From positions 62,001-115,499 of the forward strand of contig CAUYUJ010000310.1 in NCBI GenBank assembly GCA_963575745.1: a stretch of DNA of 53,499 bases. Direction: 5' to 3'. The position numbers and the translations under genes are program-made. Position 1 is the first letter of the stretch; each line of letters opens with the position of its first letter. Positions 1-52,422 of this stretch are shown piece after piece. The stretch is from Prorocentrum cordatum. Its lineage: Eukaryota. Under the pieces are notes generated by a model, which did no database searches, had not been told where the DNA came from, and worked only from the letters and a program-made list of their open reading frames with translations.

Positions 1-1284
1 CGGAGCTTATCAGCTCGACAGGGGCGTCAGTACTCCAGGTTGCCATAAGATCCTGTCCGAGTCCTGACAAGTCGTCGCCGCAATCGTCATTTCCGTCTTC
101 GACGTGCTTTTTAATGCGGCGAGGCTTGATGCCTGCTTCCTTTTCGGCTTTGAGCCTTTCCTTCTGCTTTATACGCGATTCAGTGGGTAAAGCTTGCTCG
201 TTTTGTTCGTCGGTCTGTGTACTCATTGTCGTGGTGGAATGGGTACATGCGTCAATCGCCAGAGTCGGGAGGGGGAGAGAACAGTCATCTATGATGACGC
301 GTCTATGTTTCTGTGGTGATTGAGTAGGCTCGTTTCCGAGCAAGACCGGTTCCTCGGGTTGCCAATACAACCGAGTACTGATGTTGGCAACCCCTGCAGG
401 TAATGGTGCATGCCAATCATACCCTGTTGGTTGATCGGTAACTGAGATATCTTGAATAACCGCGTTGGTATCCAATTGATTGTTACACGTCGGATAACTT
501 CAGACCATTTTGGTCCTCCTTTATGAGTCGTCACGTAATGACGAGTATTATGGTCTGTACGTGTATACGTATTTAAGTATACGGGCACGTTTCCGTGCGT
601 GGTGGTACTCCCCAGGATTTTGTCGTTTAGGTAACGGATGAGTGTAGTACGTGTCTGAGCCCGCCATTCAGCATGTCGTACCGTATGGCCGTACCAGTCC
701 AACACATGTTGTGGTATGGCCTGCTTACAGGTACATGTCCACAGCTTCGAGCTAATCGGTATCGATGATGCTATCTGCATATATGTACCACTTGGTGTAT
801 TGTCTTGCATATTGAACCGAATACCGAAATGACACAAACGCATCCGTATTACTGACAACTTCAGATCTTCCAGAGTATCACGTACTGGAGATAACTTCCA
901 AACGTATCCTGGGGGACCGAATATGATGATTTTCATGCGGAGTTTCTTGGCTTTTATCAACAGGTTCTGGATACGTGACCAGTGTGGGGCCACTCTCTTT
1001 CCTGGAGTTCGTATATACCAGTCACCCGGAGTACTGATCCATATGAGAGTGTAATCTCCACTGATCACCGCACCTAGATAATTTGTGCCCACGCTTGTCA
1101 TAAGTTCGTTGTGGGAAATACGGTCACAAATATAACCTCGTGTGCGGAGGTCGGCACATGCCTCCCTCGTATCTTCAATGACAAAAGCCCTCTTACTAAG
1201 GCAGGTTGCCCCGCTGTCCTTGTTACCCCCCGGCTTTTCAGCCATCAGGCAAGACGACGAGGGGGCGACGTCGCCCTGCCATCT
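1..1284 (-). CDS. 5' part of pol of element 1: degenerate DNMT-like domain and linker, one frameshift near 475, open at the window edge
   Basis: In frame with the polyprotein past the UGA. Contains LIWISTPGDW, IIIFGPPG, MRLCHFG and CTC..H. Restoring one base at about 475 turns RRVTIN-WIP into RRVTINLDTNAVIQD and gives a frame open to position 1 (..LPTESRIKQKERLK..HVEDGNDDCGDDLSGL). Confidence 0.7.
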
Positions 1285-1287
1285 TCA
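1225..1287 (-). promoter_or_regulatory. UGA stop plus H-type pseudoknot: candidate programmed readthrough signal between gag-PR and pol
   Basis: UGA (1285-1287) is in frame with the downstream ORF. Stem 1 is GGCAGGGCGACG (1269-1280) paired with CGUCGUCUUGCC (1248-1259). Loop bases GCCCCCU can pair with GGGGGGU (1225-1231). A GGCU-GAAA-AGCC hairpin (1232-1243) lies between them. Confidence 0.7.
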
Positions 1288-4200
1288 AGATGAAGAAGAT
1301 GTGCCTACAATATCTGCCAACATCTGGGCTTCCCTCAGATGCTGGAGCTCAGCACTGCAGCGCGCCGTGGCCTCAGAGGCGGATTGCTCCGCAAATGCTG
1401 TCAGCATCGATGGATTATCCATCAGCTGTTTCAGCGCGCCTTTGGACCTAGCGTCGCTGACCGTATGCAATTCACGATTAGTGTATCCCATCACTATTTT
1501 ACGGCGGGACTGCACAGCGTCCATGGGTACACTACCACCATGCTTGGCCAGTGTCCTGGCAACAAAACAATCGAACGTCTCGAGATCGTCGATGTTGTCG
1601 CCTCGCATGGTGGCCTTGGCGAGCGTCTCCATCAACCCCTGGGGCAGGTTTCCCTGCAATTGATTGCGCTCCTGCGCTGGGGTCGGCTCGCCTGTCAGCA
1701 CTGTCTGGAAGGACGTGCTGCTTGAGCCCGAGGCGGGTTGCCCCGCAGCTCCAAAACGATCACACCTGATCGACAGATGCCCTGACGGCAACTTCGTCGT
1801 CGGCATGATTTTGGAGCCTTCCGGGAGCTCCATCTTGACCTGCCCCTTACCAGGGAATATCAGCTTTTCCTGGCCTCGTTCAAGCACGATGATCGTGCGT
1901 TTGTCCTGCATACTATCGAGACCTAGGATGGCTGGCAGGTCCTTTCCACAGCCTGACACAATGTTCGTCTTGTATGAATCGTGTTGGGCTGACCCCTGGT
2001 ACTCGCAGGCAATGCTAAATGTGCCTACGGTATCCGCTGGGGCCGACCCCTCTCCCACTCCGTTGATATGCAAACGAGAGCGGGGCTCGAATGTACAAGC
2101 ACGACCATGTGACTCAGCAGCCTGAACGAACTTACGGCTCGTGTTCTCGCCCATGATGTTGATCTTCGAACCGACGTCGATGAGTATGGAATTTCCACCA
2201 TCATCCAAGAACGTCTTACTCGGCTGCTTGATGTGCACAGTTTCTGAAGTGTCGGCTGTGTCGGTAGGCGGGTTTCCCCGCGGCACATTCGTACTCCCTG
2301 GCGGGTTACCCCGCACGACACTGGCATGCGACTCGCTCTCGGCCATGCGTGCCAGGTCAATGTACTGGAAGTACGACACGTGCTGGGCGTGATCACCACG
2401 CTCCTCCCGCCAGTTGGCATACTCATCACGTATGCTCATATACTGCTCGCGGGTAGTGCGCCTTATCAGCGTTAGGTACGAGTGAAGGGCGATGTCTTGC
2501 AGCCCTTCGTTCATGACGTGATCCCGGTACCGCAGCCACTCCTCGAACTCCTCATTCGTCGCTGAGATGTTGACGGCCCTGGCTGCTGCTGCTGACGCCG
2601 CTGAGGATTCTGATAGGTCTAACGACGGACTATCAGTTTCAGGATTATTGGCATCTAGCATAAACGTTGTGTGTGTATTATCCATCTGATTCTGGAAATG
2701 TCGTACACGCAACTCGCGCAGCTGATCAGGGTCCAATGACATCTCAACCTCGCCTCCACTCTGGGGAGACATCTGAGGAGTATCCTGCAGGTTTCCCTGC
2801 TGAGGCGCCGTCATCGGGATAAGCTGATCGAAATATCCCGTTGCCATAGGCGGCCTTACCTCTTCAGGCAGGTGTCCCTGCTGGTGTGACGAAGCTGTCT
2901 GCATAGCTAGCATCCTGGCCGTCATCTCCTCCACCATGCTCCTTAGCTCCCGCAGCTCCCTCATTGACTGCTCGGGAGTCTGACTAAGGGAGCCAGTCCA
3001 TGGGAAGGACGATGTTATAATGCCAGGTGCACGACAGATCGCACATGGTGGCTGCTGTGGATCTCCCTCGCGCTGGTTTGTCACGTGGCCCACCACGTTA
3101 GAATTCCAGCATCCCTCGTGGAATAGGTGATTGCACCTCAGGCGATACACACTATCCCTGGGCTGAAATTCTTCGAGGCATACAGCACAGGTGTCCTCCA
3201 TCCCAGTAAAGACTTCTACGTCTGCTACCCTGGGATATACCCGCCGCTGCCTCTCCAGTACCGTCTCGGAGGGCATGAAGGCTGATGGGGGAGTCCCCGT
3301 TAGGTCCATCACCTCCGGCCCTTCGACATTTGGCATGGAAGTGGTAGGAGTCACGGCGGGCGAGTTTCCTCGCAAAGGTGAGCCCCTATTCCGCACCACA
3401 TCGAGTGCAGCTGCACGTGACTGGTCCCGTACACTTTGCACCGCCTGCCTCCTCATGAAACATGCCTGCTGAGTGTGGTGCGTCTGCCTGATGTAGTCAG
3501 GCACGCCCCTACTGCCAGACGATATTGAATGGGCAGTGGGTTGTACAACCACCTCTGGTGATGTTGGGGAAGGCATGAAGGCCATGTGCGGGTACATGGA
3601 GTGGTCACTGCAGCGCACATTGGTGAGGTGATGCATCTGATCCGCCAATTCCCGAACAAATTTGTTCGGGACCCTTGTACCGTCAGGGTATAATGGCGGA
3701 TTCATCTGCGTGGGTGGTGGCCTCTGGCCCTGAGACATGCTCGGATGGGCGTTGAACGCCAGGATAAAGGCTCTCTGCCGAGCGGGGTCCCGTGGGTTGG
3801 GACCCTCCGGTTCCCAGGACCAGGCTGGCCTCCACCTCTGCCCACTTGGGTGAGGCAGATTATGGTTCTGCACCTGCTGTACCGCGGCCGCCACTCTTGA
3901 GCGATAGTCGTCGGGTATACCCGCCCTGTGGTGGCTTGGTGTACCAGGCAGGTTTCCCTGCTGACTCGTTGGCGTGCCGGGCGGCATCATGTTGAGGAGG
4001 GCTGTGCTGTGATCAGCCCTAGCCGCAGCTAGCCTCTCCATGAGTGTGCCGTTTACTGCAGGGCGAACAGGTGTCCCAAATGGGGATTGTGCTGGCGGAG
4101 TGCCCGCTGGAGTCATGCCCCTTGGAGTGTGCATGCTCTGTGTGGGGCTTGCGTGCATTGGCTCGAACCGAGCAGGTCCGCTTGTAGGCAGGTTTCCCTG

Positions 4201-7200
4201 CATGGCTTGACGATTTCTCGTGGCCATAGCGGACATTGCTCCCTGGCCTGCGGCCCAGGGATCCTGCTGGTACAGCCTGTCCGCCAGCTGTTCTACCTGG
4301 TCAGGGTTCAGCGCAGCTGCAATCTGATCCAGGTCTGAAGTACTTATGGCCTGCCAAGACACGGCGCTCGGCCCTTGGCTTGGGGCACGGCTTGGAGCCG
4401 CGCTCCCGGCCTCACTCTCGGTGATCATAAAGATCCGAAAGATCTCAGGCTGGTTTCCCAGCTGGGTGGGGCTGTAGTGGTCCCCAACGTCCCTGTGGAG
4501 GTAGACCATGGCTGGATCAACGCCCTCTTGGTCTCGGGACCACTTGTACTTAACGCTGGAATCACCAACATCAGCCCACCTATCTGGGGCAGTCATCATA
4601 CTGACAGAGACTCGCGCACGGCGGATCCCCAAATATTCTGGGTTGCGCCATTGCCTTCCAGTGGTCAGGTCCTCTACATGGGAAATGTAATACGGTTCAA
4701 TGATACCGTTATCTCCCTCGGACAAGAGGACTCCGTTATCGGACCAACAGAACTTTATACCATCTTGTATGGCCTTGCGCCAATCTACAAAGATGATGAG
4801 GTCTGATTCTGGGTCCCACCCACTGTTCACGGCACGGCGGCGCAATGTCGGCACGAAGTGGATGTGTGAACGGCCTGTCCCCGTTTTCTTCGTGTTGTGC
4901 TCAGGTCTACAGGACAGGCCGTGCCACATAATGCCTTCGAAAGCGTGCCATCGAGTGCCATGCATGGCGACTTCAGGGTATTTGGCCGGTCTCCCGGCGG
5001 GTTCGTCGCACAGTACAATGTAGCTGTACAGCGACCATGGAGCTTTCAATTTCCATGAATGCCCCTGAGAGGCGCGGACGAAGATAGCAGGCTCGCCAGA
5101 GTCCCGCATTAGCACCTTGAATTGAAGGCGCTGTTTTTCTTCTCCGTCTGGTTCACGAACATGAACAACTTCCATCATGATGGCTGCGAGTTGGTCAACC
5201 GAGCGACCATACAACTGCTCGCTAATAACTTTGGCCTCTTCATAAGCGTGCCTCGAGTGACTTGTGTTCCAAGAAAAGTTCTCCACGAGGTCCACGAGGT
5301 TGATCCAACCATCATGATCATCAAAAGATTTCAGGCGCCACACAGGATTATGTGGCTTATCTGGCGCATGTCTACATATCCTGCTGATAGCTTTGCTTAA
5401 CCTTTTAAGAGTATCATTGGATCTGGGAAGAATTCCGGCCTTCCTGCATTCCTTCATGAATGGCTCATCCACCGAACGTATCGGTGGGAGCTTCCGAAGT
5501 GCCAGTCTATCCCTGATCAGATCTGGAGTCCCACTAGTGAAGGATGTGTCTCCTGGGTGGTGCAGCTGAACTGCTGGCGGGTTTCCCCGCATCGGAGCCT
5601 CTGTTGCTGAAGAGGCTGCGGCTCCTGAAGAGGAGGAAGCTGCGGCAGCAGCGCCTGGCGGGTTTCCCCGCGGAGATGCGCGACTGGCGCTGCCCCTGAT
5701 CTTCGGCACCCAGTTACCCCTCGACATAGCACCTTCATCGGACCTCCTGGAACGAGCCGCCACAGGCGAAGCTGGCGCAGGTGCATACTCACTGCGCTCG
5801 AAAGCTGCCGCCCGTTCCGCAATGGACTTGCTGCGGCTAAGCGAACGTCTTCGTTCCTCAGTGGGGTCCTGGGGTTGCTGCTTGGGCACAGATGCTGGTA
5901 GGAGCTGCTGTTTCGGCGGCGCCGGAGGCGGCTTAGGTGTCGGGGGTTCACTCTTGGCCTTCGAAGTTAGTGGGAGTGGGGGCTTTCTAGCCCCCTTCAT
6001 GTAGAGCTTGCTGGAATCCTCCAGCATCTTGCGAGTTGCCTCGCGTGTGCGTTCATCTACTGTCTGAATACGCTCCTCATCTTCCGCCACACGTTGAGCC
6101 TTTGTCTCGTCCTTGATGATCGGCTCTGGTTGTTGGGACTGGCTAGATACGCCAGGCGAGTTTCCTCGCATACCAGGAAGACTAAAGAGCGCGTCTTTCT
6201 CTTCCTGGGTCATGGCTACCATTCCCCTTGGAGCCGGAGTAGGTTTCTCTTCTTCTTTCGGATCCAAGTGGCCCAAGATCCCGAGACGACTATTCACTGC
6301 TGCGATCTCTTCCGGTGTCATCGGGTCAAGTGGCGGATGGCCCTCCTTAGGAGGGGTTTTGCCCCTGTTGGGGCTCAGGCCTTCGTTGTTTCCAACGGGG
6401 CATCCTGGCCTGTGATTCTGGAACGGCTGGGAACAAGGACCACATGCAGCGTGAGGCCTATACTGCTTGCGAGCCGCGATAATATCTCGCAACTGGGTCC
6501 GCGCTTCTTGAATTTCAGGGCGGCGGATGTTTGTTGCAAGCTGATAGCCTCCACGGATGGGTCTGCCATCGCCGTCCCTATAGGCAGGATTGCCCTGGCC
6601 GAAGGCCGAGTGTTCCCCTTTTCGGCGTCGTGGGTCGTTGTGTGGAAGTAGCTGGCCACCTCTTCTGGCAGCGTGTTCCTTTGGGCCAGCCTGTCTCCAA
6701 TCACGAGGGAGTCGAGCCTGAGGATGTGGCTCTCCTCTGACGCGCGTATGGGAACGAGATCTTCTGGTGTTCTCATCAGAAGAGGCTGCTGATGCAGCAG
6801 GAGCGGCACCCGTTGGAGGTGCTTGAGGAGGCTCCTCTGCGATCCCGGGTGGATCGCTCGATGGAGGCAGGTCTCCCTGCTGGGTGGAGCTCGGCGCAAG
6901 TGGCTCTTGTGCCGATGGTGATGATGGTTCAGACTCATCAGGGTCGAAATCGACCTCTTCCTCACCAGTCACGTCCATCATGAGGATGGTGACGTCATCC
7001 TCATCTAACCCACAACCATCGCCTTCTACTTCTTCTGATGTCGAACTACCAATTATGATGGCCATTGGCGCATCTGGTAAAGGCAGGTTTCCCTGCATGG
7101 CCGGCGTCTGGCCGTCACTCGGCTGTCCTGGAGTAGGAGGCACAGTCGTCGGCTCAGGGTCATCGACGAGCATAGGCTGCCTAGCAATGTTACGCATGGC

Positions 7201-9972
7201 CGTATGGTTTGGCCTCATCCCCAGCTCCTGGAGATTCCATCCTGGCGGGGGAAGATCATGACCACGCATAGCCATTGCCATTTCCAGGGCACGACGCCAT
7301 CTACCATGGGAGTATACTAAGTGTCGTTGCACTTCCTGAGGATTTATACGGTCAATGAGAGACAAAGCTGCCAAGAGTAGCTCTGAGCTACCGCAAGCAT
7401 CATTATCATTATCTGTCATAATACCAGCTTCAATTTGTTCTTGACTCTCAGGATCTGCAATTGCAAGTATCTCATGCGTCCACATGAGGGTCTGCAAAAG
7501 TGTACGCGGTCCATATTCGCCTGGAGCAAGCGAAACAGGAGGTATGAACGGAGAACCTGGTTCACCTGCAATGAAGGCCTGAACAAATGCTTGAGACTCC
7601 ATTTCAATTAAGTCTTCAATAGTATGGGGATATTCTCCCAGCAGAAAAGGCCTGTGTCCAGGCGGGATTTCGGGCGGAGGTTCGAGGTTCTGTTGAACCT
7701 CGGAAGGCGAAGCCTCTATAGTGGTGTCCTCTCCGTCGTTCTCGTAGGCCATGATGTTGCCTGGGTTCCCGAACATCCAGTCGAAGAAGGAAAGAGGCTC
7801 GTTTCCGAGCGTACCGTGTTCCACGGGAGTGAGTTCATTACTGCCCGTGACGAACCGGCGGACGTACTCGAGGTAATACGCGTATAATCCATGACCATAC
7901 CCCTCGAGCTCGTCAATGTTGTCCATGCCAACGACCCATGTGAAAAATATCTGTTCCATAGCCTCAAAGTCCTGGAGGCTCAGATACTCAATGGATGGTG
8001 TGCTTGAGCCGAAATGGACTTCGGACGACATGCCCTTTCCATTTCCCTTCGCTGGACAATCTCGCACAAGATGATCGGTACTACCACACTCATGACATTT
8101 GAGAACCTGGCCGTCTCTACCTCGCGGGTTTCCCCGCCTACCTTTGCCTTTTCCTGAGGTCTCTCTACGGCCTTTACCGCGGCCTTTTCCCCCAAAGAAT
8201 ATCTCATCATGTTGTTCATCTGAGAGCCTCTGGAGAAATGCCGCGATACCTCGCCCGTTCAACCTCCGACGACCACGCTTGCCTTTACCCTTTCCTTTAA
8301 AACTTCTGCGTATCCTCCTTCTAACACGACGCACTGGTTTTCGTGTGAACCTCCTCCACCTTCGCTTAGCCTGTTGTAACAGCCAGAATAAATGCTCAGC
8401 ACGCTGATTGTCGTTATCCATATTCATGATATCTGACCAATCTAGAGCTTCAACACCATCTGATGATATAGTGTCTGTATCGGTGCCGGAGTCGAAATCT
8501 TCGTCTCCTAAATAGGTGGATACACCGTCGGTTAGGGGATTTGATTCCCCCCATAACGAGCGGTGTGGTTGTGGTTCTCTAGAAGGAGGGCTGGTTGCCC
8601 AGCTTGGTTGTGATCGATCCCCTGCTAATAAAGCAGTGGATTCTCCTGGGTCATCGGCCCATATGTTTGAGGGCCCGTTTCCAGGCTGGACTTCAGTAGT
8701 CAAGGTAGTGTAGAAATTTCCACTACCAGATCCCCTTCCTCTTCCAAACACGGATCCTATGTTGCCAGGGGATCGTTCGGATAGGTGACCTACCGAACGC
8801 ATCGTTTCCAGCAACTCATCATATTGTTGTTGTGTTCGAGGCATTTGGTGGTTGAGTGGCTGCAAGAGTTGCGTGGCTTTCTGGTTGCCGACGCCTAAGG
8901 CGCGGAATAGGATAGTAGTTAGCAGTTGGAAGTTAAGAAGGTCGAATCCCACCGACTGTGCCTCAAGTCGGGCCATTTCGAATCGGGTAAGAGTGACATC
9001 GATTCGTTCCCCGTGAGCCGCATGGAAGTCGATGAGTTGTGTGCCGGAAGTGAGCTGTCGCTCATCTTCCAGGCGTTCGAACTTCATGCTGAGGAGGAAC
9101 ATGATGTAAGTTACTGGGTCCGTGTGGACCCCATCAATGTCAGCACCATAGTTTATAATGTCAGGCGGTACCCTCATGGCGAGTGTCCTCGCTAGGCCTC
9201 CCAGGCCGCGTTGTATTGCGGCCGCTTGGGCCTGTGGCGTCATACGTCCGCTTGTAACGTTGAGCCACGCGTTGACCTCGTAAATGTACTCACGAAAAGG
9301 TACATTACCCTGAGGGTCCCAGTATGGGCCATGTGTTTGCCCATCGGTGCTGTTATCTCCCCGACGCATGTGTGCGATTGCTGCCCCCAGCGCGAACCAT
9401 ATGATAGCGAAAACGATTAGCCCGAGAATGTGTAACGAAGAATGGTTATGATGAGCGGTGTCACGCTGGGGTAGCGCCTTGTCGAGTCTTCGAGGCGCTC
9501 TGTCTGGCGGGTTTCCCCGCCCTTGCTTCAGGTATTGCGTTATTGGCTCGTTGCCGAGCGGTTGATAGTAACGCAATGATGAAGCGTATATGGTACCAAT
9601 CTGGTCGTCTAGACGTCGTACCTCTCGTGTAGCTTCTTGCTCTTGAATAGATCCTCGTAAATGTACTGGGAGTGGTGGCGCAGGGTAGTAGGTGGTCACG
9701 AAGATCGCGCCGAAGAGTGTGAGGCTGAGAAGAGCAAGAGCTGACCACGCGAGAGGGCGGCCAGCTCCGCTACCAAGTCGAAAGTGAGCTTGGTAACTCA
9801 AATAGGGCATATAGCCTGTCATATAGCATCCGATTCCAAGGCGCTGACCGTGGACATCGGATGGCAAATAGCGTCCATCGCTCTGCTGTAGCTGTGAAGG
9901 TACAGTATGAGGGGTGGGCGGATAAGATAGGATAAGATCGATGTAATGATCTTTCCAGCACATAGCGAACAC
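1285..9972 (-). CDS. Gag-protease polyprotein with Tpt1/KptA and RING-H2 cargo (2895-aa ORF; first AUG after the PBS is at 9369)
   Basis: Uninterrupted 8.7-kb ORF with gag (about 8780-9369), CHECGSTDHLVRDC knuckle, Tpt1, RING-H2 and a retropepsin-like domain. The first ~65 codons lie in the putative LTR. Confidence 0.9.
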   Translation of the reverse strand: MFAMCWKDHYIDLILSYPPTPHTVPSQLQQSDGRYLPSDVHGQRLGIGCYMTGYMPYLSYQAHFRLGSGAGRPLAWSALALLSLTLFGAIFVTTYYPAPPLPVHLRGSIQEQEATREVRRLDDQIGTIYASSLRYYQPLGNEPITQYLKQGRGNPPDRAPRRLDKALPQRDTAHHNHSSLHILGLIVFAIIWFALGAAIAHMRRGDNSTDGQTHGPYWDPQGNVPFREYIYEVNAWLNVTSGRMTPQAQAAAIQRGLGGLARTLAMRVPPDIINYGADIDGVHTDPVTYIMFLLSMKFERLEDERQLTSGTQLIDFHAAHGERIDVTLTRFEMARLEAQSVGFDLLNFQLLTTILFRALGVGNQKATQLLQPLNHQMPRTQQQYDELLETMRSVGHLSERSPGNIGSVFGRGRGSGSGNFYTTLTTEVQPGNGPSNIWADDPGESTALLAGDRSQPSWATSPPSREPQPHRSLWGESNPLTDGVSTYLGDEDFDSGTDTDTISSDGVEALDWSDIMNMDNDNQRAEHLFWLLQQAKRRWRRFTRKPVRRVRRRIRRSFKGKGKGKRGRRRLNGRGIAAFLQRLSDEQHDEIFFGGKGRGKGRRETSGKGKGRRGNPRGRDGQVLKCHECGSTDHLVRDCPAKGNGKGMSSEVHFGSSTPSIEYLSLQDFEAMEQIFFTWVVGMDNIDELEGYGHGLYAYYLEYVRRFVTGSNELTPVEHGTLGNEPLSFFDWMFGNPGNIMAYENDGEDTTIEASPSEVQQNLEPPPEIPPGHRPFLLGEYPHTIEDLIEMESQAFVQAFIAGEPGSPFIPPVSLAPGEYGPRTLLQTLMWTHEILAIADPESQEQIEAGIMTDNDNDACGSSELLLAALSLIDRINPQEVQRHLVYSHGRWRRALEMAMAMRGHDLPPPGWNLQELGMRPNHTAMRNIARQPMLVDDPEPTTVPPTPGQPSDGQTPAMQGNLPLPDAPMAIIIGSSTSEEVEGDGCGLDEDDVTILMMDVTGEEEVDFDPDESEPSSPSAQEPLAPSSTQQGDLPPSSDPPGIAEEPPQAPPTGAAPAASAASSDENTRRSRSHTRVRGEPHPQARLPRDWRQAGPKEHAARRGGQLLPHNDPRRRKGEHSAFGQGNPAYRDGDGRPIRGGYQLATNIRRPEIQEARTQLRDIIAARKQYRPHAACGPCSQPFQNHRPGCPVGNNEGLSPNRGKTPPKEGHPPLDPMTPEEIAAVNSRLGILGHLDPKEEEKPTPAPRGMVAMTQEEKDALFSLPGMRGNSPGVSSQSQQPEPIIKDETKAQRVAEDEERIQTVDERTREATRKMLEDSSKLYMKGARKPPLPLTSKAKSEPPTPKPPPAPPKQQLLPASVPKQQPQDPTEERRRSLSRSKSIAERAAAFERSEYAPAPASPVAARSRRSDEGAMSRGNWVPKIRGSASRASPRGNPPGAAAAASSSSGAAASSATEAPMRGNPPAVQLHHPGDTSFTSGTPDLIRDRLALRKLPPIRSVDEPFMKECRKAGILPRSNDTLKRLSKAISRICRHAPDKPHNPVWRLKSFDDHDGWINLVDLVENFSWNTSHSRHAYEEAKVISEQLYGRSVDQLAAIMMEVVHVREPDGEEKQRLQFKVLMRDSGEPAIFVRASQGHSWKLKAPWSLYSYIVLCDEPAGRPAKYPEVAMHGTRWHAFEGIMWHGLSCRPEHNTKKTGTGRSHIHFVPTLRRRAVNSGWDPESDLIIFVDWRKAIQDGIKFCWSDNGVLLSEGDNGIIEPYYISHVEDLTTGRQWRNPEYLGIRRARVSVSMMTAPDRWADVGDSSVKYKWSRDQEGVDPAMVYLHRDVGDHYSPTQLGNQPEIFRIFMITESEAGSAAPSRAPSQGPSAVSWQAISTSDLDQIAAALNPDQVEQLADRLYQQDPWAAGQGAMSAMATRNRQAMQGNLPTSGPARFEPMHASPTQSMHTPRGMTPAGTPPAQSPFGTPVRPAVNGTLMERLAAARADHSTALLNMMPPGTPTSQQGNLPGTPSHHRAGIPDDYRSRVAAAVQQVQNHNLPHPSGQRWRPAWSWEPEGPNPRDPARQRAFILAFNAHPSMSQGQRPPPTQMNPPLYPDGTRVPNKFVRELADQMHHLTNVRCSDHSMYPHMAFMPSPTSPEVVVQPTAHSISSGSRGVPDYIRQTHHTQQACFMRRQAVQSVRDQSRAAALDVVRNRGSPLRGNSPAVTPTTSMPNVEGPEVMDLTGTPPSAFMPSETVLERQRRVYPRVADVEVFTGMEDTCAVCLEEFQPRDSVYRLRCNHLFHEGCWNSNVVGHVTNQREGDPQQPPCAICRAPGIITSSFPWTGSLSQTPEQSMRELRELRSMVEEMTARMLAMQTASSHQQGHLPEEVRPPMATGYFDQLIPMTAPQQGNLQDTPQMSPQSGGEVEMSLDPDQLRELRVRHFQNQMDNTHTTFMLDANNPETDSPSLDLSESSAASAAAARAVNISATNEEFEEWLRYRDHVMNEGLQDIALHSYLTLIRRTTREQYMSIRDEYANWREERGDHAQHVSYFQYIDLARMAESESHASVVRGNPPGSTNVPRGNPPTDTADTSETVHIKQPSKTFLDDGGNSILIDVGSKINIMGENTSRKFVQAAESHGRACTFEPRSRLHINGVGEGSAPADTVGTFSIACEYQGSAQHDSYKTNIVSGCGKDLPAILGLDSMQDKRTIIVLERGQEKLIFPGKGQVKMELPEGSKIMPTTKLPSGHLSIRCDRFGAAGQPASGSSSTSFQTVLTGEPTPAQERNQLQGNLPQGLMETLAKATMRGDNIDDLETFDCFVARTLAKHGGSVPMDAVQSRRKIVMGYTNRELHTVSDARSKGALKQLMDNPSMLTAFAEQSASEATARCSAELQHLREAQMLADIVGTSSSS
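1760..2200 (-). other. Retropepsin-like aspartic protease domain of element 1
   Basis: ILIDVGSKINIMG (D-x-G active-site strand), flap-like INGVGEG, LPAILGLDSM and KLPSGHL. Confidence 0.75.
3034..3189 (-). other. RING-H2 (C3H2C3) zinc finger inside the polyprotein
   Basis: CAVC-x14-CNHLFHEGC-x21-CAIC, with all eight ligands present. Confidence 0.9.
4670..5410 (-). other. TPT1: Tpt1/KptA RNA 2'-phosphotransferase domain inside the polyprotein
   Basis: Family motifs in the correct order: LSKAISRICRH, DHDGWINLVDL, KQRL, FVRASQGHS, HGT, GLS, GRSHIHF, SGW, IIFVDWRKAIQDGIKFCWSDNGVLLSEG-DNGIIEP. Confidence 0.9.
8056..8097 (-). other. CCHC zinc knuckle (nucleocapsid) of element 1
   Basis: CHECGSTDHLVRDC = C-x2-C-x4-H-x4-C, preceded by basic KGKGKG/RR tracts. 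Confidence 0.92.
9764..9775 (-). promoter_or_regulatory. Primer-binding site of element 1 (tRNA-iMet type)
   Basis: TGGTAGCGGAGC, identical to the PBS next to the LTR of element 3. Confidence 0.85.
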
Positions 9973-10053
9973 TCGCGGTGTCCGGGCAAATAGGGCGCGC
10001 GTGCCTTGAGCCCAAGGCAGCGGCGCGCGAGCTATGCTCCCGATACTGTAACA
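9778..10053 (-). repeat. Putative 5' LTR of element 1
   Basis: Starts TGTTAC on the minus strand, ends just before the PBS and contains an SL-like motif. The partner LTR is outside the window and the 3' end is not a clean CA. Confidence 0.55.
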
Positions 10054-10071
10054 TCTCCCAAAGAGCTACCC

Positions 10072-11020
10072 TTAAAGTAGCTGCACGCCCGGGTAGATGT
10101 CTGTTAACCACTTGGCGTCCAGCTTGTTCTTGTGGCCCCTGTTCCTGTCCGCCGGCAGGTAGTGCACCGTCTCAGCGAACAGCGGGAGCTCCTTGCGGTA
10201 CCTCTTCCCGCGGATCCTCTCGTACGCCGTGCGTCCGTCCGCCCCGACGTCGAACGGGCTGATCACCGCGCCTGCGTAGTTGATGAGCCACGGCACGATT
10301 GCATGGTCGTGGCCGATCTTGATCCCATACTGGCGCTCCACCGCCAGCTTCAGGGTCCGCACGATGCCGCTCACGGACTGCACCGCCCGCTCGATCGTGC
10401 CGTTAGCCTGGTGCTCCTCCACCGGGCTCTCCTCCTTCACGATCTTGAAGGTTTCACCCAGCGCCTCGATGACCTTGCTCTTCAGGTCCAGGATCGAGGG
10501 CTCCTGGTCACTCTTGAAGATGAAGTGCTTCACCCCCGTGTACTCGATGGCCTCCGCCACCCACTTGATAATCCAGGCATCTTTCGTGCCCTTACTCGTC
10601 GCGGCGATCGACGCCGTCCATCGCCCCTTGTGCTCACGCATCACCAGCGTGGGCTCTGCTCGCTCGTCGTCTCCACCGAAGAACGTGTAGTCAATGGAGA
10701 TCGTGTTGACTAGATGCTCTCGCTCAGCGTCCAGTCGTCGGTGGTCAGCATTGCGGCCGCGTCCTCCCACGCAGTCTCAGCACCATGCCCTGAACTGCAC
10801 GTGCCCTGCCGCCTCGTGCATCTCCCGCTCGACCGTCGTCGGCTCGAACGGCCGCGGCGCCACCGTGACCGGTGGGTCGCCCATGTCGTCGTCCTCCTCG
10901 TCCTCCAGCGTGGGCTCCACGGGTTCCGCCGCCGCCGGCGCTGCCGCTGAGCTTCCGCCTTCTCGCCGAGGAGGGTCCCCGGTGTTCGGTCTTGCGGCTG
11001 AGCCCGCCGACTGTCCCCCG
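10072..11020 (-). pseudogene. Integrase of element 2 (nonsense codon at 10777-10779, 3'-truncated)
   Basis: HHCC zinc domain HEAAGHVQFRAWC*DC, then DDE core ISIDYTF, KSDQEPSI, QANGTIERAV, followed by DGRTAYER and KLDAKW. Confidence 0.88.
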
Positions 11021-17989: not shown

Positions 17990-20160
17990 CGTTCCTCTGA
18001 AGGCATGCGCGCGATCGGCTAGCAGGAGAACTTGGCGATGCATGCCGATGAGAAAACCTCCGCTGGTCTCTTTTGGCCCCTCCTTTGGCGAAATGCAGCT
18101 GCAGATCCAGCGAAATCCTCGCCCCTGTAATTCCATTTTTTCGCCGGCGCGCCGCCTTCCATGCAGAGCTCCAGAAACGTGTGCATTTCAGGCTTGAGTC
18201 TGAAGTGCGCGGGGGGCACGTCTTCCGAAGGGGCCATCTGCGCGGCGCGCTTTATTGCGTGCTCGCGAAGAATATCCACGAACGGGTGGTTGTCAGACAG
18301 CGCGGCGCAACGCCGACTTGAGCATTTCATCCCAGCGTGAAAGGGCGATTCTACAGCGGCCCGCTGGTCGGCGCCATCCCGGTGATCAAGGAATGCGCCC
18401 GCAATCTCCACCACCCATTGGGCCATGTGCCTGAGCATCCCCGCGCCGCACCTCATCTTAGCCGTCTTCGCCTCCTGCCGTTTCGCGACGCCCCGCGTCA
18501 GTTTCGGTGAGCGGCTGGTCTTCTCACCTGGCGGCTGCCTGTCGAAGAGCGCCATCAAATGGCGATGCGGCGTTAGCACGCAGGCTTTCTGGTTGGCTCC
18601 AGCGACCTTTCTGTGCATTGCGAGGTACCAGACCAAACCGCCGATGAAGTCAGCCGCCGCCCCGTGGTCAACGACGCGCAGCCGCGCTAACTGCCGCGAC
18701 TTCTCGTTTGCATTCCGCGCTTGAAACAGAGGGCGCGCAGTCTCGCCTGAAGCGGTGATCTTTCCAATGGTTTCTGGCCGTGTGCGGCGGTGCGTTCTCC
18801 GCGGCGCGTCTCTCCCAGTCTGCGATTTCACCTGGGGGGGGGCTTCTGAAAACGATGGGGCGCCTCTTCCTCCTCCTCCTCTCCCGCCTCCGCCCCCCCC
18901 TCCTCCTCCTCCGCCTCCGCCTCCTCCTCCTCCTCCTCCTCCTCCCCTCCCTCCCTCCCTCCCTCCCTCCCTCCCTCCCTCCCCTCCTCCTCCTCCTCCT
19001 CCTCCTCCTCCTCCTCCTCCTCCTCCTCCTCCTCCTCTTCTCCTCCGCTCCTGCCTCCTGCCTCCCGCCTCCTTCTCCTCCTCCTCTTCGCCCCCCCCCC
19101 CCCCCCCCCCCCCCCCTTCCCGCCTTCCTCCTCCTCATGACCTCTCGCCCTATGCCTTCCTCCCCTTTCCCCTCTCCTCCTTCTCCCGCCCGTCGCCCTG
19201 CGGCGGGGGCCGCGATCGATGATCCCCCTCCGAGAAGGGGGCGCTGCGTTCCAGAGGGGATTTTCACCGGTAAATTTCCATGATGGTTTGGGCGCCGCGG
19301 CCTCGAACTCCTCAATGTTGCGCAGTCGGCGCGCCTCGTCGCCCTGCCGGCCAGGTAGCTTGAGCGCCTCCTTCATCGTCTTCCAGCCCCTTTTGATCTG
19401 GCGAAGCGCTCAGCCGATCGGTTCAGCTGCCGGTTGGCGCTTCCCCCGGGCGTCTGTCGCGCCGAAAGGGGAGGCGTCGTGCCGCGCCGTTGGCCAGCGC
19501 GTCGCAGCCACTTGAATGGAGCTCCACTGCGTCACGGCAAAGATGCCATCAAAAATGTGGGGGCCAACGTGCTCTTTGAGGAACGCAGTGAGTGGTGCCC
19601 GCGTGTTTTCCAGCCTCCTGCAGCCCCGGGCAGCATGGCGCCGATGATTTCGGCGCTCGTGGATCGGCCCCCAGAAGCGAAGGGCTCCGTCTGCCGCGCG
19701 CCCAGGGCCACCAAGTCGTCGCAAACCGCTCTCAGTGACTCAGCTCTCGCTTTCTGCGCGTGGCGCAAAGACGCGCCGTCGAGACTCGACGTCTCCGGAA
19801 GCGCGCTCCGATCACCAGAATGATGAAGCTCACGAAGGATCTCGCGTGGAAGCATCATCGCTAGATCCATCGGCTGTTATGTTTCGTACTTGGGGCCCCA
19901 GCCCCTTGCCTGGCAGCGATGAAGCGGGGGCCGCCCCTCCTGGAGGAATTGGCGCCAGAACTTCCTGGCGGCGTTTTTTCATGCTCGACGTGGTTTCAGA
20001 GGTCTGCAGGTCGGCAACGCCCGTCGCAGACGCGGAGACGGCGTCATTGATCAACTGAGCACCGCGCTGCCCGCTGACCGCGTTGCTGCTGATCAGGTCC
20101 TCCACGTTCGCTCTCAGCCGCGTCTGCGGTGGCAATTGAAGCCTGTCATGGCCTGTCATA
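17990..20160 (-). pseudogene. Decayed DNA-transposase-like gene (tentatively Plavaka/CACTA-like), split by a low-complexity tract
   Basis: Protein-like fragments in shifting frames: RLRANVEDLISSNAVSGQR, FDGIFAVTQWS..RWPTARHDASPF, VVDHGAAADFIGG, FRLKPEMHTFLELC..WNYRGEDFAG. The family is assigned from recalled motifs only. Confidence 0.45.
18864..19135. repeat. (CCT)n/(CCCT)n/poly-C low-complexity tract
   Basis: Directly visible. Confidence 0.95.
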
Positions 20161-23957: not shown

Positions 23958-24970
23958 CCCCCAAAACCATCCTGTGGTGATGGGTCCTCGTTTCGAAGAG
24001 ACGGTGGCCCGCGTCTCCTCTCCCCCTCCTGCTCTCCTCCTCCTCCTCCTCCTCCTCCTCCTCCTCCTCCTCTCCTCTCCCCGCCCCCCCCTCCTCCTCC
24101 CACTCCTCCCTCCTCCCCCTCTTCCTTGCGTTTCACCAGGCCAGTGCAGCGTTTCGTAGCCCCATCGGGAGCTCCACCGACGGCGCCAGCGGCAGGGTTC
24201 GCATGGCGGCCCTGGGCCATTTCGGCACACCCCTCACGAGGATCGTTGCCCCATGGGGAGCTCCACCGAAGGCCCCAGTGGCAGCGTTCGCATGGCGGCC
24301 TCGGGGCATTTCGGCACACCCCTTACGAGTTTCGTGGCGCCATAGATGAGCTCCACCGAAGGCGCCAGTGGCAGCGTTCGCATGGCGGCCTCGGGCATTT
24401 CGGCACACCCTCACGAGGATCGTGGCCCCATAGGGAGCTCCACCGAAGGCGCCAGTGGCAGCGTTCGCATGGCGGCCTCGGGCCATTTCGGCACACCCCT
24501 CACGAGGATCGTGGCCCCATAGGGAGCTCCACCGAAGGCGCCAGTGGCAGCGTTCGCATGGCGGCCTCGGGCCATTTCGGCACACCCCTCACGAGGATCG
24601 TGGCCCCATGGGGCGCTCCACCGAAGGCCCCAGTGGCAGCGTTCGCATGGCGGCCTCGGGGCATTTCGGCACACCCCTCACGAGGATCGTGGCCCCATAG
24701 GGAGCTCCACCGAAGGCCCCAGTGGCAGCGTTCGCATGGCGGCCTCGGGCCATTTCGGCACACCCCTTACGAGGATCGTGGCGCCTATAGGACAGGGGCT
24801 TCGCCGAGGGCGCCAGTGGCAGGGTTCGCATGGCGGCCTCGGGCCATGTCGGCACACCCCTCACGAGGATCGTGGCCCCATAGGAGCTCCAGCGAAGGCG
24901 CCAGTGGCAAGGTTCGCACGGCGGCCTCGGGCCATTGCGGCACACCCCTCGCGAGGATCGCGGCCCCATA
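23958..24970 (+). repeat. Composite repeat A: conserved head, (CCT)n, then about nine 89-bp tandem units
   Basis: Unit CGTGGCCCCATAGGGAGCTCCACCGAAGGCGCCAGTGGCAGCGTTCGCATGGCGGCCTCGGGCCATTTCGGCACACCCCTCACGAGGAT (89 bp). The head is shared with 30730-30784. Confidence 0.92.
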
Positions 24971-25199
24971 GATGCGTTGCCTCAACAGCCGCGCCCTGGC
25001 GTCGTACTCCGCCGTGCCGAAATGCAACGCCACCTCCTCCCTCATGGCTCTCAAAGCCCTCTTCTGCTTATTTGCTCCTCGGTCAGAGGGGCGCCGTCCG
25101 TGTCGTCGTCGGCGCCCGCGAAGACGGCCGCGAACGTGTTCCTGAGCATGTCGGGCTCCGGCGTGAAGCTGTGGCTGCATAGGGGGCGCGGGCAAAGAT

Positions 25200-25292: not shown

Positions 25293-26194
25293 TGGGGGGG
25301 TGGCGGCGCCTTCTCGTCCGCGGGGGGGGGGGGGGCGGTCCGTCGGCACCTCCGGCAGCGCGCCCTCTCCGCGATCGCATCTGCGCTGCTGGTGCCTTCC
25401 AGGCGCAGGAAATTGACCGAGACAAAACCGGGGGGCATCGAAGCATCACATCAACAAAAAAACAGCCCCCTATGCTGAAGGGGTCATCTAACCCCCCCAT
25501 TCTTGGGGTAACTTTCACTCGTGCGTTGCCTCGCTCGGTCCACCTCGCTTCTGCCTCCTCGCCATCTCCGGCCGTTCCTGTCCTCGTTGCCACGCCCGTG
25601 GAACCATTCGGTGGCGGGGTGCTCTTGGCAGCTGCGAGACGCGCGTGCTTGGAAGTGTGATCGTTGCCCGAGCTGCCAGCGCTGGCGGCGGCTATTCTTC
25701 CTCAGCCGCAGCCTGTGAGCGCTCGGCTTGCATTTCCGCCGCCGCACTTTCGCGTCCTTTTCGAACTCCCCCTTCTCAGAATCGGCGCCGTCAAAATCAA
25801 GCGAGTGGCCGTCCTCCTGGGATGTGGGCATCGAAGCATCAGATGCAAAGGCGCCGATGAAACCGCCCCTCTGGCAGGGGTCTGCGCATGGATCCCCATC
25901 GCGAAAAGGCGCCTCAGACAGCTCGCCTCCCCCCGCTTACTCCTTGCCCGTGTCCTCGCGCGGCCGCTCGCCGCCGCCGCCTCCGCCGTCGTCTGGGGGC
26001 TGTCCGCCGGGCGCCGCCGCGTGCGTGGCCGCAGCCTGGGAGTCGAGAGTAATTGCGGCTCCGAATGAGCCTTGCCCCCTTTCCTGCCTCTGTTCATGCC
26101 GCCCCCCCCTCTGCCCTTCCTCGTCCGGTCTCAACTGCCCCTCCGCCGGCCGCGACTTCGGCCCCCAGTCCCGGCTCTCGGCCCCAGTCCGGGC

Positions 26195-26675
26195 CTCCCC
26201 CTTCCCCTCCTCCTCCTCTTCCTCCTTCTTCGTCCTCCTCCTGGGCTTCCTCCTCCCCCTCCTCCTCCCCCTCCTCCTCCTCCTCCTGCTCCTCCTCCTC
26301 CTCTGATTATCATTCTTCTTTCTCCTCCTCCTATTCTCCTCCCCCTCCGCCTCCTCTTGCTCCTCCTCCTCCTCTTCTTCCTCGTCCTCCTCCCCCCCCC
26401 CTCCTCCCCCCTCCTCCCCTTCCCCCTCCTCCTCCCCCCACCTCCTTCTCAACCTCCTTCCTTCTCCTCCTCCTCCTTCCACCTCCTCCTCCTCCGCCTC
26501 CTCTTCCTCCCCCCCCCCCCCCTCCTCTTCCCCCCCTCCTCCTCCTCCTCTTCCTCCTCCTCCTCCCTCCGCCTCTCTCCTCCTTCTCCTATTCCTCCCC
26601 CTCCTCCTTCTCCTCCTCCTCCTCCCCCCCCGCCCCCCCCCCCCCCCTCCGCCCCCCCCCGCCCCCCCCTCCTCC
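26195..26675. repeat. (CCT)n / poly-C low-complexity tract
   Basis: Directly visible. Confidence 0.95.
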
Positions 26676-30723: not shown

Positions 30724-31678
30724 TTTCCCAACCATCCTGTGGTGTTGGGTCCTCGTTTTGAAGAGACGGTGCCCCGCGTCTCCTTCCTCTCCTCCTCCGC
30801 CTCCTCTCCCCTCCTATCATCGTCATCATCATCATCATCATCACCATCGTCATGCGTCAAGCACACCCATTTTGGCACATCCCTCACACGTTTCGTGGCC
30901 CCATAGGGAACTCCACCTAAGGTCCAAGTGGCGCAGCTCGCATGGCGCCACCGCTCTATTTTGGCACACCCCTCACACGTTTCGTGGCCCCATAGGGAGC
31001 TCCATTTACGGTCCAAGTGGCGCAGCTCGCATGGCGCCACCGCCCCATTTTGGCACACCCCTCACGCGTTTCGTGGCCCCATAGGGAACTCCATCTACGG
31101 TCCAAGTGGCGCAGCTCGCATGGCGCCACCGCCCCATTTTGGCACACCCCTCACAGATTTCGTGGCCCCTCAGGGAGCTCCTTTTGGCACACCCCTCACA
31201 CGTTTCGTGGCCCCATAGGGAGCTCCACCTAAGGTCCACGTGGCGCAGCTCGCATGGCGCCACCGCCCCTTTTTGGCACACCCCTCACACGTTTCGTGGC
31301 CCCATAGGGAGCTCCATTTACGGTCCAAGTGGCGCAGCTCGCATGGCGCCACCGCCCCATTTTGGCACACCCCTCGCAGATTTCGTGGCCCCTCAGGGAG
31401 CTCCACCTGAGGTCCAAGTGGCGCAGCTCGCATGGCGCCACCGCCCCATTTGGGCACACCCCTCACACGCTTCGTGGCCCCATAGGGAGCTCCACCTAAG
31501 GTCCACGTGGCGCAGCTCGCATGGCGCCACCGCCCCTTTTTGGCACACCCCTCACACGTTTCGTGGCCCCATAGGGAGCTCCATTTACGGTCCAAGTGGC
31601 GCAGCTCGCATGGCGCCACCGCCCCATTTTGGCACACCCCTCTCACTTTTCGTGGCCCCTCAGGGAGCTGCACCTAAG
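30724..31678 (+). repeat. Composite repeat B: same head, pyrimidine/(CAT)n tract, then about nine 89-bp tandem units of a related variant
   Basis: Unit CGTGGCCCCATAGGGAGCTCCATTTACGGTCCAAGTGGCGCAGCTCGCATGGCGCCACCGCCCCATTTTGGCACACCCCTCACACGTTT, period 89. Confidence 0.92.
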
Positions 31679-31679
31679 G

Positions 31680-42877: not shown

Positions 42878-42916
<39 letters not shown>

Positions 42917-52419: not shown

Positions 52420-52422
52420 AAC

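Follow-up and report, generated by a model that had tools for sequence, protein, structure and literature searches.

What kind of genetic entity carries an RNA-repair enzyme and a RING finger between a zinc knuckle and a predicted aspartic protease, all in one reading frame of nearly nine kilobases? The question is raised by a stretch of 53,499 nucleotides (nt) from Prorocentrum cordatum (GenBank assembly GCA_963575745.1, contig CAUYUJ010000310.1, positions 62,001 to 115,499 of the forward strand), referred to here as the window; all positions below are those of the window. Its minus strand holds Element 1 (1..10078), which leaves the window's left end within Pol and has its 5' end at about 10078. 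A previous interpretation made from the letters alone (the sequence-only reading) took Element 1 for a virus-like retroelement loaded with accessory enzymes. From the evidence assembled here, the window likely contains the front two-thirds, that is the 5' part of about 10 kb, of a giant, high-copy long terminal repeat (LTR) retrotransposon of the Ty1/copia kind, taken here to belong to a green alga. The explanation starts from what was observed: the domains, their order, a conserved in-frame stop, the multi-copy state, and an array of RNA hairpins.

Extent, copy state and reading frame

The 5' boundary of Element 1 was mapped with contigs from sequencing runs. Summed contig depth in runs X1 and X2 fell from 4823 and 6233 in the bin 9910-10276 to 0 and 105 in the bin 10277-10643. 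In run X3, one contig of the family departs from the window sequence past 10078 and a flank contig begins at 10079. The drop in depth and the contig break at 10078/10079 thus place the 5' end at about 10078, and the boundary of 10053 given by the sequence-only reading was moved accordingly. The four runs mapped contained thousands of short contigs 90-100% alike to Element 1 (13,990 in X1 and 3,857 in X2), and the contig data revealed another flank at a second insertion of the family. GC content was 0.48-0.59 within Element 1, compared with 0.63-0.64 in the adjoining bins at 10-12 kb. Words nearly identical to Element 1 turned up in 20 sequencing runs from 14 studies, marine, freshwater, and urban metagenomes among them; it is the host alga or else the element that is widespread.

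The frame of open reading frame (ORF) 1 occupies 1288..10065 on the minus strand (1285..10065 from stop to stop) and is free of stops over 2926 codons, in agreement with the unbroken frame of 8.7 kb reported earlier. GC content at first codon positions exceeded that at second positions over the full frame. The start codon is uncertain and may be Met35, Met82 (9820-9822), or one further in. Other listed frames in the first 10 kb do not exceed 226 amino acids (aa), except for the in-frame continuation of ORF1 at 289..1284 (331 aa). The best-supported differences between Element 1 and other copies, a small and biased sample of 38, comprised eight synonymous and two non-synonymous changes in Pol and 11 synonymous and 17 non-synonymous changes in ORF1; as sequence counts, they fit a strongly constrained Pol and a linker-rich ORF1 under weak constraint.

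At the 5' end, the interval 9839..10078 (minus strand) between the mapped 5' end and a candidate primer-binding site was taken as a putative 5' LTR or leader; the leader up to the first plausible start (Met82, 9822) measures about 255 nt. The candidate site, TGGAATCGGATGC (9826..9838, minus strand), begins with TGG and is weak, and the window contains no tRNA gene with which to compare it. In other copies, the TGGAATCGGATGC letters are preceded by a different sequence ending in CA (loose end at 9805, X1). Indel joints at 9818-9891, with sides of 20-27 nt and below the reliability mark of the tool, hint at a leader reaching to about 9823. No second copy of 9839..10078 occurs elsewhere within the window. 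Contig depth was higher in the terminal bin, but depth cannot rank the parts of the element and was not used as evidence for an LTR. Contig joints from 2258 to 5574 and from 2258 to 9500 lie at hairpin flanks that are alike and have sides of about 21 nt; they were treated as repeat artefacts.

Domains of the ORF1 polyprotein

ORF1 encodes a Tpt1/KptA RNA 2'-phosphotransferase domain at aa 1554-1784 (4714..5406, minus strand), within a conserved module of about aa 1495-1870 (4456-5583, minus strand). Pfam family PF01885 was matched over profile positions 4-177 of 177 (E 6.2e-23; 82.2 bits against a cut-off of 26), and a sequence search of the PDB retrieved chains of tRNA 2'-phosphotransferase 1 (E 1.3e-10). 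The tetrad of catalytic residues, Arg-His-Arg-Arg in the definition found in part of PMC10622864, is intact: when aligned with two cellular Tpt1 proteins, R1565-H1566, R1646, and R1732 fall on identical residues, and in the same alignment Element 1 keeps the QGHS and HGT motifs. Some other copies carry substitutions. A search with aa 1500-1960 returned 44 matches, 42 of them fragments of 60-190 aa, 55-94% identical and all source-labelled Pyramimonas sp.; the remaining two were cellular-type Tpt1 proteins with 36% and 27% identity. Up to about 14 fragments cover one position and many begin at an internal Met, a sequence pattern as would be expected from broken copies. Tpt1 looks like a capture specific to the family, found in the Pyramimonas-labelled fragments. 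Tpt1 enzymes are reported also to cap 5'-phosphate RNA ends with ADP-ribose, and some of them to take off terminal phosphates (PMC6182162, PMC6573784), so that several uses of a particle-borne enzyme are possible.

Further along the polyprotein lies a RING-H2 finger at aa 2291-2345 (3031..3195, minus strand). The family zf-RING_11 was matched at aa 2293-2319 with E 1.7e-8 and a score of 34.4 bits (cut-off 27), and the C3H2C3 ligands read as C-x2-C ... C-x-H-x2-H-x2-C ... C-x2-C, making this a predicted ubiquitin-ligase finger. A RING was found upstream of the protease in 12 of the 15 protease-type relatives scanned (24 proteins overall) and in the loci L002, L005, L007, and L009.

The protease itself, retropepsin-like, occupies aa 2610-2770 (1756..2238, minus strand), with the catalytic Asp2630 in LIDVGS and with ILGLDS at 2713. 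The Asp of L-I-D-V-G-S was invariant in 24 sequences. An AlphaFold model of aa 2586-2812 (23 homologues) reached a mean predicted local distance difference test (pLDDT) score of 81. Retropepsins led the Foldseek matches of this model, mostly retroviral proteases and Ddi1 domains (FIV, XMRV, EIAV, DDI1; best E 1.9e-3). In VIA-align all 50 of 50 rows were retropepsins, and the model aligned with the RVP domain of DDI1 at Z 9.3 (root-mean-square deviation (rmsd) 3.2, 111 residues). A homodimer model scored 0.83 against 0.00 for the best control; at least 96% of contacts agreed between runs, and pLDDT was no lower than 88. Among solved structures, 21 of 30 same-chain pairs and none of 23 single chains reached the mark that it passed. 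The pass may reflect memory of solved retropepsin dimers, that is, likeness only. By its modelled fold, ORF1 is predicted to carry a retropepsin-type aspartic protease.

Nearer the N-terminus, a candidate CCHC zinc knuckle was recognised at aa 656-671 (8053..8100, minus strand) by a zf-CCHC match of E 1e-3 and 19.6 bits, under the cut-off of 20.8. It is adjoined by an arginine-rich segment at aa 566-600 (8266..8370, minus strand), and the knuckle block aligned with ORF1 of the relative L002 at 40% identity over 85 aa (E 3e-19). From Cys670 of the knuckle to Asp2630 is a distance of 1,960 aa, close to the 1,950 aa or so of the sequence-only reading. The interval is largely rich in Pro, Gln, Ser, and Ala (e.g. 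aa 1041-1520 and 1881-2280); the low-complexity linkers said to hold Tpt1 and RING-H2 were thus recovered, together with an additional module of unknown fold of about 275 aa (aa 685-960; 7186..8013, minus strand; hydrophobic fraction 0.28-0.42) that matched no Pfam family at E ≤ 10.

Four other parts of ORF1 were delimited. Two hydrophobic, membrane-span-like segments at aa 104-127 and 208-234 (9364..9756, minus strand; Kyte-Doolittle 19-residue means of 1.7-2.7) may, as sequence suggests, be a membrane anchor for the polyprotein. They precede a Gag-like region at aa 255-440 (8746..9303, minus strand), which was assigned by its position alone, upstream of the knuckle; two hairpin sites lie between the two hydrophobic segments. 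Ahead of the protease, a conserved acidic segment at aa 2440-2575 (2341..2748, minus strand) aligns with the relatives P0002 and P0003. Its match to Pfam VPg (PF20915) stays below threshold, at E 1.1e-3 and 19.3 bits where the cut-off is 27, and is probably compositional; one relative also matches, at E 0.024. The C-terminal domain of ORF1 at aa 2806-2926 (1288..1650, minus strand) is conserved and was aligned in P0002 and P0003; it had no credible Pfam family at E ≤ 10.

The in-frame stop and the head of Pol

ORF1 ends at an in-frame TGA (1285-1287), and a stem-loop starts at this stop (1215..1287 for the two together, minus strand); 331 codons continue in the ORF1 frame past it. The same layout was found in relatives. 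An in-frame stop was present at all ten junctions with upstream sequence (the window and nine metagenome loci), and the tenth locus begins at the stop. The stop is TGA in the window and in L001 and TAG in the other loci. A stem-loop followed within about 10 nt of the stop in each of the seven junctions that were folded, and three of 13 pairs in the post-stop stem of L005-L008 showed compensatory changes. The stop-codon layout of the sequence-only reading is borne out by these junctions, as is its placement of the cargo, with Tpt1, RING, and protease all before the stop. Readthrough is the preferred mechanism by which the stop would be bypassed. In the copia-type element Tca2 of Candida albicans, gag and pol likewise form one frame with a UGA between them and a possible 3' structure, according to the passages of PMC2194720 on this element.

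Beyond the stop, Pol begins with a domain (ORF2 aa 30-230; 595..1197, minus strand) to which the AlphaFold2 model gives a C5-DNA-methyltransferase (DNMT) fold, with pLDDT mostly above 90 for aa 31-220. Foldseek returned DNMT2 (E 2e-5), DNMT3L (E 2.9e-4), and DNMT3A/B, over a range of E 2e-5 to 1e-3. VIA aligned the domain with M.HhaI at Z 10.4 (rmsd 4.5, 180 residues) and with DNMT3A/3B/3L and DNMT2 at Z 9-10; all 50 of 50 rows were C5-methyltransferases (MTases) or DNMT3L. C5-DNMTs are marked by motif I, the glycine loop that binds S-adenosylmethionine (SAM), and by motif IV, the Pro-Cys catalytic motif. Both are absent from the ORF2 domain: its first strand is followed by E-D-x-R-E-A in place of the glycine loop, and the nearest look-alike of the Pro-Cys motif is F-G-P-P-G, without the Cys. 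The domain is thus a pseudo-enzyme with a C5-DNMT fold; of the DNMT-like domain proposed earlier, the fold was upheld and an enzymatic function was not. In size it comes closest to DNMT3L.

Pol of this copy is interrupted. A one-base deficit at 474..475 (minus strand) was located by a change of homology frame and by contigs: homology to relatives' Pol runs over 1215-607 in frame -1 and over 307-2 in frame -3, and contigs with an extra G at 475 gave 459.8/459.8 in X2, 9.54/9.54 in X8, 45.8/45.8 in X3, and 30.2/158.6 in X1. The extra G in other copies joins the two Pol frames, and the deficit is therefore private to the Element 1 copy. The unbroken frame seen earlier holds for ORF1; Pol is frameshifted near 475, and this copy is not fully intact. 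The last part of Pol in the window is the linker RIKQKERLK ... DDCGDDLSGLG (2..307, minus strand), which matches Pol of relatives (A5 profile, E 1.6e-22). In relatives this linker precedes a second MTase-like domain, integrase (IN), reverse transcriptase (RT), and RNase H.

An array of GNRA hairpins

The sense strand of Element 1 carries 29 GNRA-tetraloop hairpins, typically GCNNG-GNRA-CNNGC, distributed over 328..9559 (minus strand). They were apparent at the protein level as a recurrent peptide, [RQLH]-G-N-x-P, which is the in-frame reading of the 14-nt stem-loop GCNNG-GAAA-CNNGC; the form [RQ]GN.P occurred 12 times against an expectation of 0.1. Perfect GAAA hairpins numbered 17, all on the minus strand at 328-9521, with none on the plus strand and none elsewhere in the window. 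With G-U pairs allowed, GNRA hairpins numbered 29 on the sense strand and one on the antisense strand of Element 1, whereas the two strands of the remaining 43.4 kb had 10 and 8. ORF1 holds 15 GAAA hairpins; 500 codon shuffles averaged 0.03 and never gave more than one. Among sense GGAAAC sites, which were not selected on pairing, 18 of 19 in Element 1 formed at least 5 bp, compared with one of seven outside. The covariation score of the stem was 0.649 against 0.132 when shuffled, with the middle pair being GC in 11 hairpins, AU in seven, UA in six, CG in two, GU in two, and UG in one; since the instances were chosen as paired, the variety of pairs alone counts as evidence of covariation. Stem covariation explains the peptide pairs R-P/S, Q-L, L-Q/E, and H-V. 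Because the stems covary and hairpins occur in other frames also, the RNA element is taken as primary and the frame preference as a second constraint. The RNA hairpins of the sequence-only reading are therefore real, by strand bias, codon shuffles, and covariation alike.

Hairpin sites bracket the modules of ORF1: they stand at aa 2586/2597 and 2805 around the protease, at 1494 and 1870 around Tpt1, and at 2233 and 2424 around the RING. In the relatives P0002, P0003, P0071, and P0124, G-N/G-D sites flank the protease, and one such site precedes the knuckle in L002. Relatives had 27 sense and six antisense hairpins in 34 kb, a lower density than in Element 1. Some repeats in the relatives P0163 and P0003 read D-P-G-D-R-I or R-G-D-T-P instead of x-G-N-x-P, and judging from the peptides these would back-translate to hairpins with a GAGA loop. 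A -1 frameshift at G-GGA-AAC was considered and rejected: the hairpin itself contains the heptamer, which is not followed by an open -1 frame.

Relatives and the clade

Relatives were sought with aa 2423-2926 joined to ORF2, the TGA read through. Clusters matching the protease block or the ORF2 domain numbered 1062 at E ≤ 1e-3, 382 at E ≤ 1e-10, and 60 at E ≤ 1e-30. Fifteen Pol proteins of relatives, 794-2037 aa in length, begin with the ORF2 domain, and eight of them carry a precomputed PF07727 match. RVT_2 was recovered in all six Pol relatives that were rescanned (three above the cut-off, none above 40 bits), preceded in one of the six, P0166, by a weak rve match (21 bits). By eye, the order in the relatives' Pol is the dead DNMT-fold domain, the linker R-I-K-Q-K..G-I-K-P-K-K..D-D-C-G-D-D-x-S-G-L-G, a second MTase-like domain, a zinc-binding/integrase region, RT with H-V-D-D, and RNase H. 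This linker is matched, in another frame, by the window's last 300 nt, and Element 1 is therefore copia-type by its relatives, with Pol continuing leftward. Scans of viral contigs with the Gag region and the ORF2 alignment found no relatives, none of 7381 candidates was retained in a whole-length protein search at similar lengths, and a PDB sequence search with the whole Pol profile gave no match.

The second domain of the relatives (e.g. L005:2535-3467) displays the near-invariant motifs E-L-C-G-G, G-G-N-L-D-L, Q-P-N-C, and R-E-Q-P, and could by these be an active methyltransferase. It had no credible Pfam family at E ≤ 10. Its assignment as a DNMT was rejected: the motifs were seen by eye only, hhalign against the dead DNMT-fold domain gave Prob 0.1, and an apparent match proved to be self-overlap.

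How much of the cargo is peculiar to Element 1? In L002, knuckle and protease are about 890 aa apart, and the interval holds a RING and no Tpt1. RING and DNMT-like head are conserved over the clade at 30-50% identity, and sequence comparison marks the RING-protease pairing and the DNMT-like head of Pol as old, clade-wide hallmarks. The accessory cargo envisaged by the sequence-only reading thus divides: Tpt1 is specific to the family of Element 1, and RING and DNMT-like head belong to the clade as a whole (for the RING, 12 of 15 relatives and four loci). The clade is large and widespread, is seen mainly in marine metagenomes, and is apparently undescribed as such. It has a fixed plan. ORF1 comprises (two membrane-span-like segments,) a Gag-like region, an arginine-rich segment with CCHC knuckle, a variable interval, RING-H2, the conserved segment, retropepsin, and the C-terminal domain. 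After one stop and a stem-loop, ORF2 opens with the dead DNMT-fold domain and the linker, goes on to the second MTase-like domain, and then has integrase, copia-type RT, and RNase H.

Proposed mechanism and alternative explanations

In the proposed mechanism, most ribosomes would halt at the TGA to yield the ORF1 polyprotein, and a minority would bypass it to yield ORF1-Pol, most simply through hairpin-helped readthrough. The retropepsin would dimerise and cut the polyprotein in its linkers. RING and, in the family of Element 1, Tpt1 would be made in Gag amounts; release of the cargo by the protease, its dosage at Gag level, and any action on host pathways are what we infer from the layout. 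RING and DNMT-like head may serve the element's own cycle, in particle traffic or turnover and in chromatin- or methylation-linked targeting or anti-silencing. Since both are kept over distant relatives in presumably different hosts, such a role is favoured over host-specific attack. Tpt1 would be a later capture, and RNA packaged with Gag its most likely substrate, at ends or junctions that bear a phosphate mark. The approximately 30 sense GNRA hairpins, mainly in linkers and there reading x-G-N-x-P in frame, would be RNA signals; with an arginine-rich segment beside the knuckle, our best guess takes them for packaging sites, dispersed and bound by the arginine-rich/knuckle part of Gag. The system as first pictured from the sequence survives in its outline, with cargo before an in-frame stop, a DNMT-like domain after it, and IN and RT in relatives, and calls for three changes: RING and DNMT-like head are no special cargo, the DNMT-like domain is a pseudo-enzyme, and Pol of this copy carries a frameshift.

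A number of observations weigh against this interpretation. The LTR pair, polypurine tract, target site duplication, integrase, and RT of the Element 1 copy all fall outside the window, and the 240-nt "LTR" and the primer-binding site are guesses. The Gag-like region matched no Pfam family at E ≤ 10 and is without family or fold support. The protease was matched neither by Pfam nor by a PDB profile search, and the ORF2 domain had no Pfam family, DNA_methylase included, and no PDB sequence match; the identities of both derive from structure predictions whose scores are moderate (E 1.9e-3 and 2e-5 in Foldseek; Z 9-10). In the sample of 38 differences ORF1 is weakly constrained at best, and the Element 1 copy may be dead through the Pol frameshift near 475. 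At the stop, the structure in the window does not clearly surpass shuffles (131 nt, z -1.38; 76 nt, z -1.86), and many Pol predictions of relatives begin with a Met near the stop, so that by sequence a separate initiation of Pol is possible. The UGA-flanking sequences of Tca2 did not drive readthrough in Saccharomyces cerevisiae reporters, in the experiments reported in the relevant part of PMC2194720, and bypass may accordingly work another way. Finally, 21 of the 29 hairpins read Gly-Asn/Asp and eight lie in other frames, and the stem explains all conserved peptide residues, so that a protein-level role as cleavage sites is only putative.

Could the locus instead be a host or domesticated gene for a multi-domain Tpt1/RING protein? 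The very long intact frame, and a window that contains neither RT nor IN, would suit such a gene, but we regard it as extremely improbable: the four runs hold thousands of diverged contigs, the edge at 10078/10079 is sharp, a second insertion has another flank, many broken Tpt1 fragments begin at internal Met, and the frame continues as the head of Pol, which is followed in relatives by IN and RT. If Element 1 is a retrotransposon, its accessory domains might still be weapons against the host, with Tpt1 altering host tRNA or other RNA, RING marking restriction factors, and the DNMT-like domain blocking or redirecting de novo methylation in the way that DNMT3L-type partners modulate DNMT3. DNMT3L, the inactive partner of DNMT3A/B, is indeed among the structural matches that suit the ORF2 domain best in size; ORF1 domains would be abundantly made; and DNMT domains taken up by other retrotransposons act on host genomes, as the sections of PMC5890265 on those elements have it. 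We nevertheless think this unlikely, as conservation of RING and DNMT-like head over 1062 clusters at 30-50% identity fits better with a core function.

The x-G-N-x-P sites permit two further readings. They might primarily be protease cleavage sites, with hairpins secondary, e.g. arising from repeated duplication of linker cassettes. All 18 GCNNG-GAAA-CNNGC hairpins (and the 21 of 29 overall) are in the Gly-Asn/Asp frame, and the sites bracket protease, Tpt1, and RING, flank the protease in the four relatives named above, and precede the knuckle in L002. This account is doubtful in our view: the residues around G-N covary as base pairs need, no residue outside the stem is conserved, the eight hairpins in the other two frames have the same shape, and the strand bias is 29 to 1; constraint on the peptide alone would permit any Gly and Asn codons. 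A far-reaching extension, to which we give little credence, would make the hairpins the organising principle of a marine-protist copia-like clade, acting at once as packaging signal, as protease-cut linker, and as pause or template-switch point for hairpin-bounded cassettes; Tpt1 would heal phosphate-blocked RNA in the particle (e.g. cleaved primer or genomic RNA), and the pair of dead DNMT-fold and MTase-like domains would steer or shield integration. The packaging reading of the hairpins, with readthrough of the stop and a protease that acts on the linkers, remains the one we prefer.

Other features of the window

The neighbours of Element 1 are decayed, as described in the sequence-only reading. 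A relative of the same superfamily at 42481-52573 (minus strand) is broken into many short ORFs. It is bounded by direct repeats of 152 nt (42481-42632 and 52422-52573), 89% identical and 9941 nt apart, and pieces of its ORFs match the clade Pol profile in the IN region (46695-47600, E 9e-25). The space for its ORF1 is about 3 kb. This relative indicates that the group has LTRs and that ORF1 can be much shorter than in Element 1. A primer-binding-site-like sequence, TGGTAGCGGAGC, stands 3 nt past its upstream repeat. Searching the rest of the window by tblastn against ORF1 and ORF2 gave no match, the relative (at 43-49 kb) being seen by profile search alone, and 48 ORFs from the rest of the window had no Pfam family at E ≤ 0.001; one weak match fell in the Pol tail of Element 1 itself (2-499).

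The flank of Element 1 at 10079-10776 is a GC-rich (64%) ORF fragment on the minus strand and a low-copy repeat in the mapped runs; Element 1 is inserted in another repeat. An HHCC and DDE integrase was suspected in this flank by eye and dismissed, as Pfam, PDB, and hhalign against the clade IN were all without a match. Elsewhere, arrays of an 89-nt tandem repeat occupy 24038-24971 and 30777-31833, in two variants 72-79% alike between arrays and 92-99% within the first, with a single further unit near 32939. An 11-nt unit is repeated about 40 times in tandem at 37024-37484, and long C/CT-rich tracts of low complexity, with runs of more than 20 C, lie at 18827-19182 and 26159-26683.

Comparison with known systems

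Compared with cellular Tpt1/KptA, the domain of Element 1 keeps the whole-profile Pfam match, the tetrad, and the QGHS and HGT motifs. It differs in being embedded in a polyprotein, in insertions in both lobes, in a conserved C-terminal extension of about 70 aa, and in sharing 36% identity with the nearest cellular Tpt1 found. The hairpins have a parallel in RNA viruses, in which packaging signals can be dispersed stem-loops and arginine-rich peptides bind GNRA-like loops. As in those viruses, many short hairpins of one loop type would be strung along the sense strand, with an arginine-rich segment beside the knuckle; unlike there, the hairpins of Element 1 lie inside coding sequence and mostly in one frame, and the parallel is an analogy only. 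They offer a clean case of joint RNA and coding constraint with built-in covariation, on which hypotheses of packaging or processing can be tested.

Gammaretroviruses read through a stop codon between gag and pol, with an RNA structure a few nt downstream. Element 1 and its relatives resemble them in having an in-frame stop between structural part and Pol with RNA structure downstream; they differ in that the protease lies upstream of the stop and that TGA and TAG are both used in the clade. With Ty1/copia elements (Pseudoviridae) the group shares, in relatives, a probable RVT_2-type RT and the order protease-integrase-RT-RNase H, together with a candidate zinc knuckle and short LTRs in the neighbouring relative. 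Tca2 comes closest in layout, with gag and pol in one frame split by a UGA and a possible 3' structure (PMC2194720, in the portion cited above). In contrast to Ty1/copia elements, Tca2 included, ORF1 of Element 1 measures about 2,850-2,930 aa instead of a few hundred. Further differences are a protease before the stop, RING-H2 and Tpt1 between nucleocapsid and protease, a DNMT-fold and a second MTase-like domain ahead of IN, N-terminal hydrophobic segments, dozens of GNRA hairpins, and the weak Pfam scores of the relatives (RVT_2 at most 40 bits, rve 21 bits). Searches of open-access full text (subscription literature and databases of transposable elements were outside their scope) found no report of GNRA hairpin arrays in retrotransposons, no report of Tpt1 in a retrotransposon, and, among the papers compared by title and start of abstract, no description of a RING in a copia polyprotein or retrotransposon. 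The group is a large, copia-like one that standard domain searches barely see; Pfam misses its protease, its DNMT-like domains, its Gag, and a large part of Pol. It combines an unusual gene plan with at least one captured RNA-repair enzyme.

The head of Pol invites comparison with DNMT3L and with retrotransposons known to carry a DNMT. Like DNMT3L, the ORF2 domain is a compact C5-MTase fold without target-recognition domain or catalytic residues (Z 9.3-10.1 over 163-173 residues); the two differ in that their identity is 10-15% and that the ORF2 domain stands at the N-terminus of a retroelement Pol. The DNMT-carrying retrotransposons SymbioLINE-Dnmt, SymbioDIRS-Dnmt3, and KnitGypsy-Dnmt3 belong to the LINE, DIRS, and Gypsy groups, and Copia elements of Symbiodinium are without a DNMT domain in the passages of PMC5890265 that treat them. 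Those elements and Element 1 have in common a domain of cytosine-methyltransferase type inside a retrotransposon Pol. Going by the same passages of PMC5890265, their DNMTs are detectable by Pfam and have the key residues, whereas the domain described here is in a copia-type element, is invisible to Pfam, and, in the copy of the window, is without the catalytic motifs. Through the dead DNMT-fold head of Pol, cytosine methylation and retrotransposons would be linked in a fourth, independent way.

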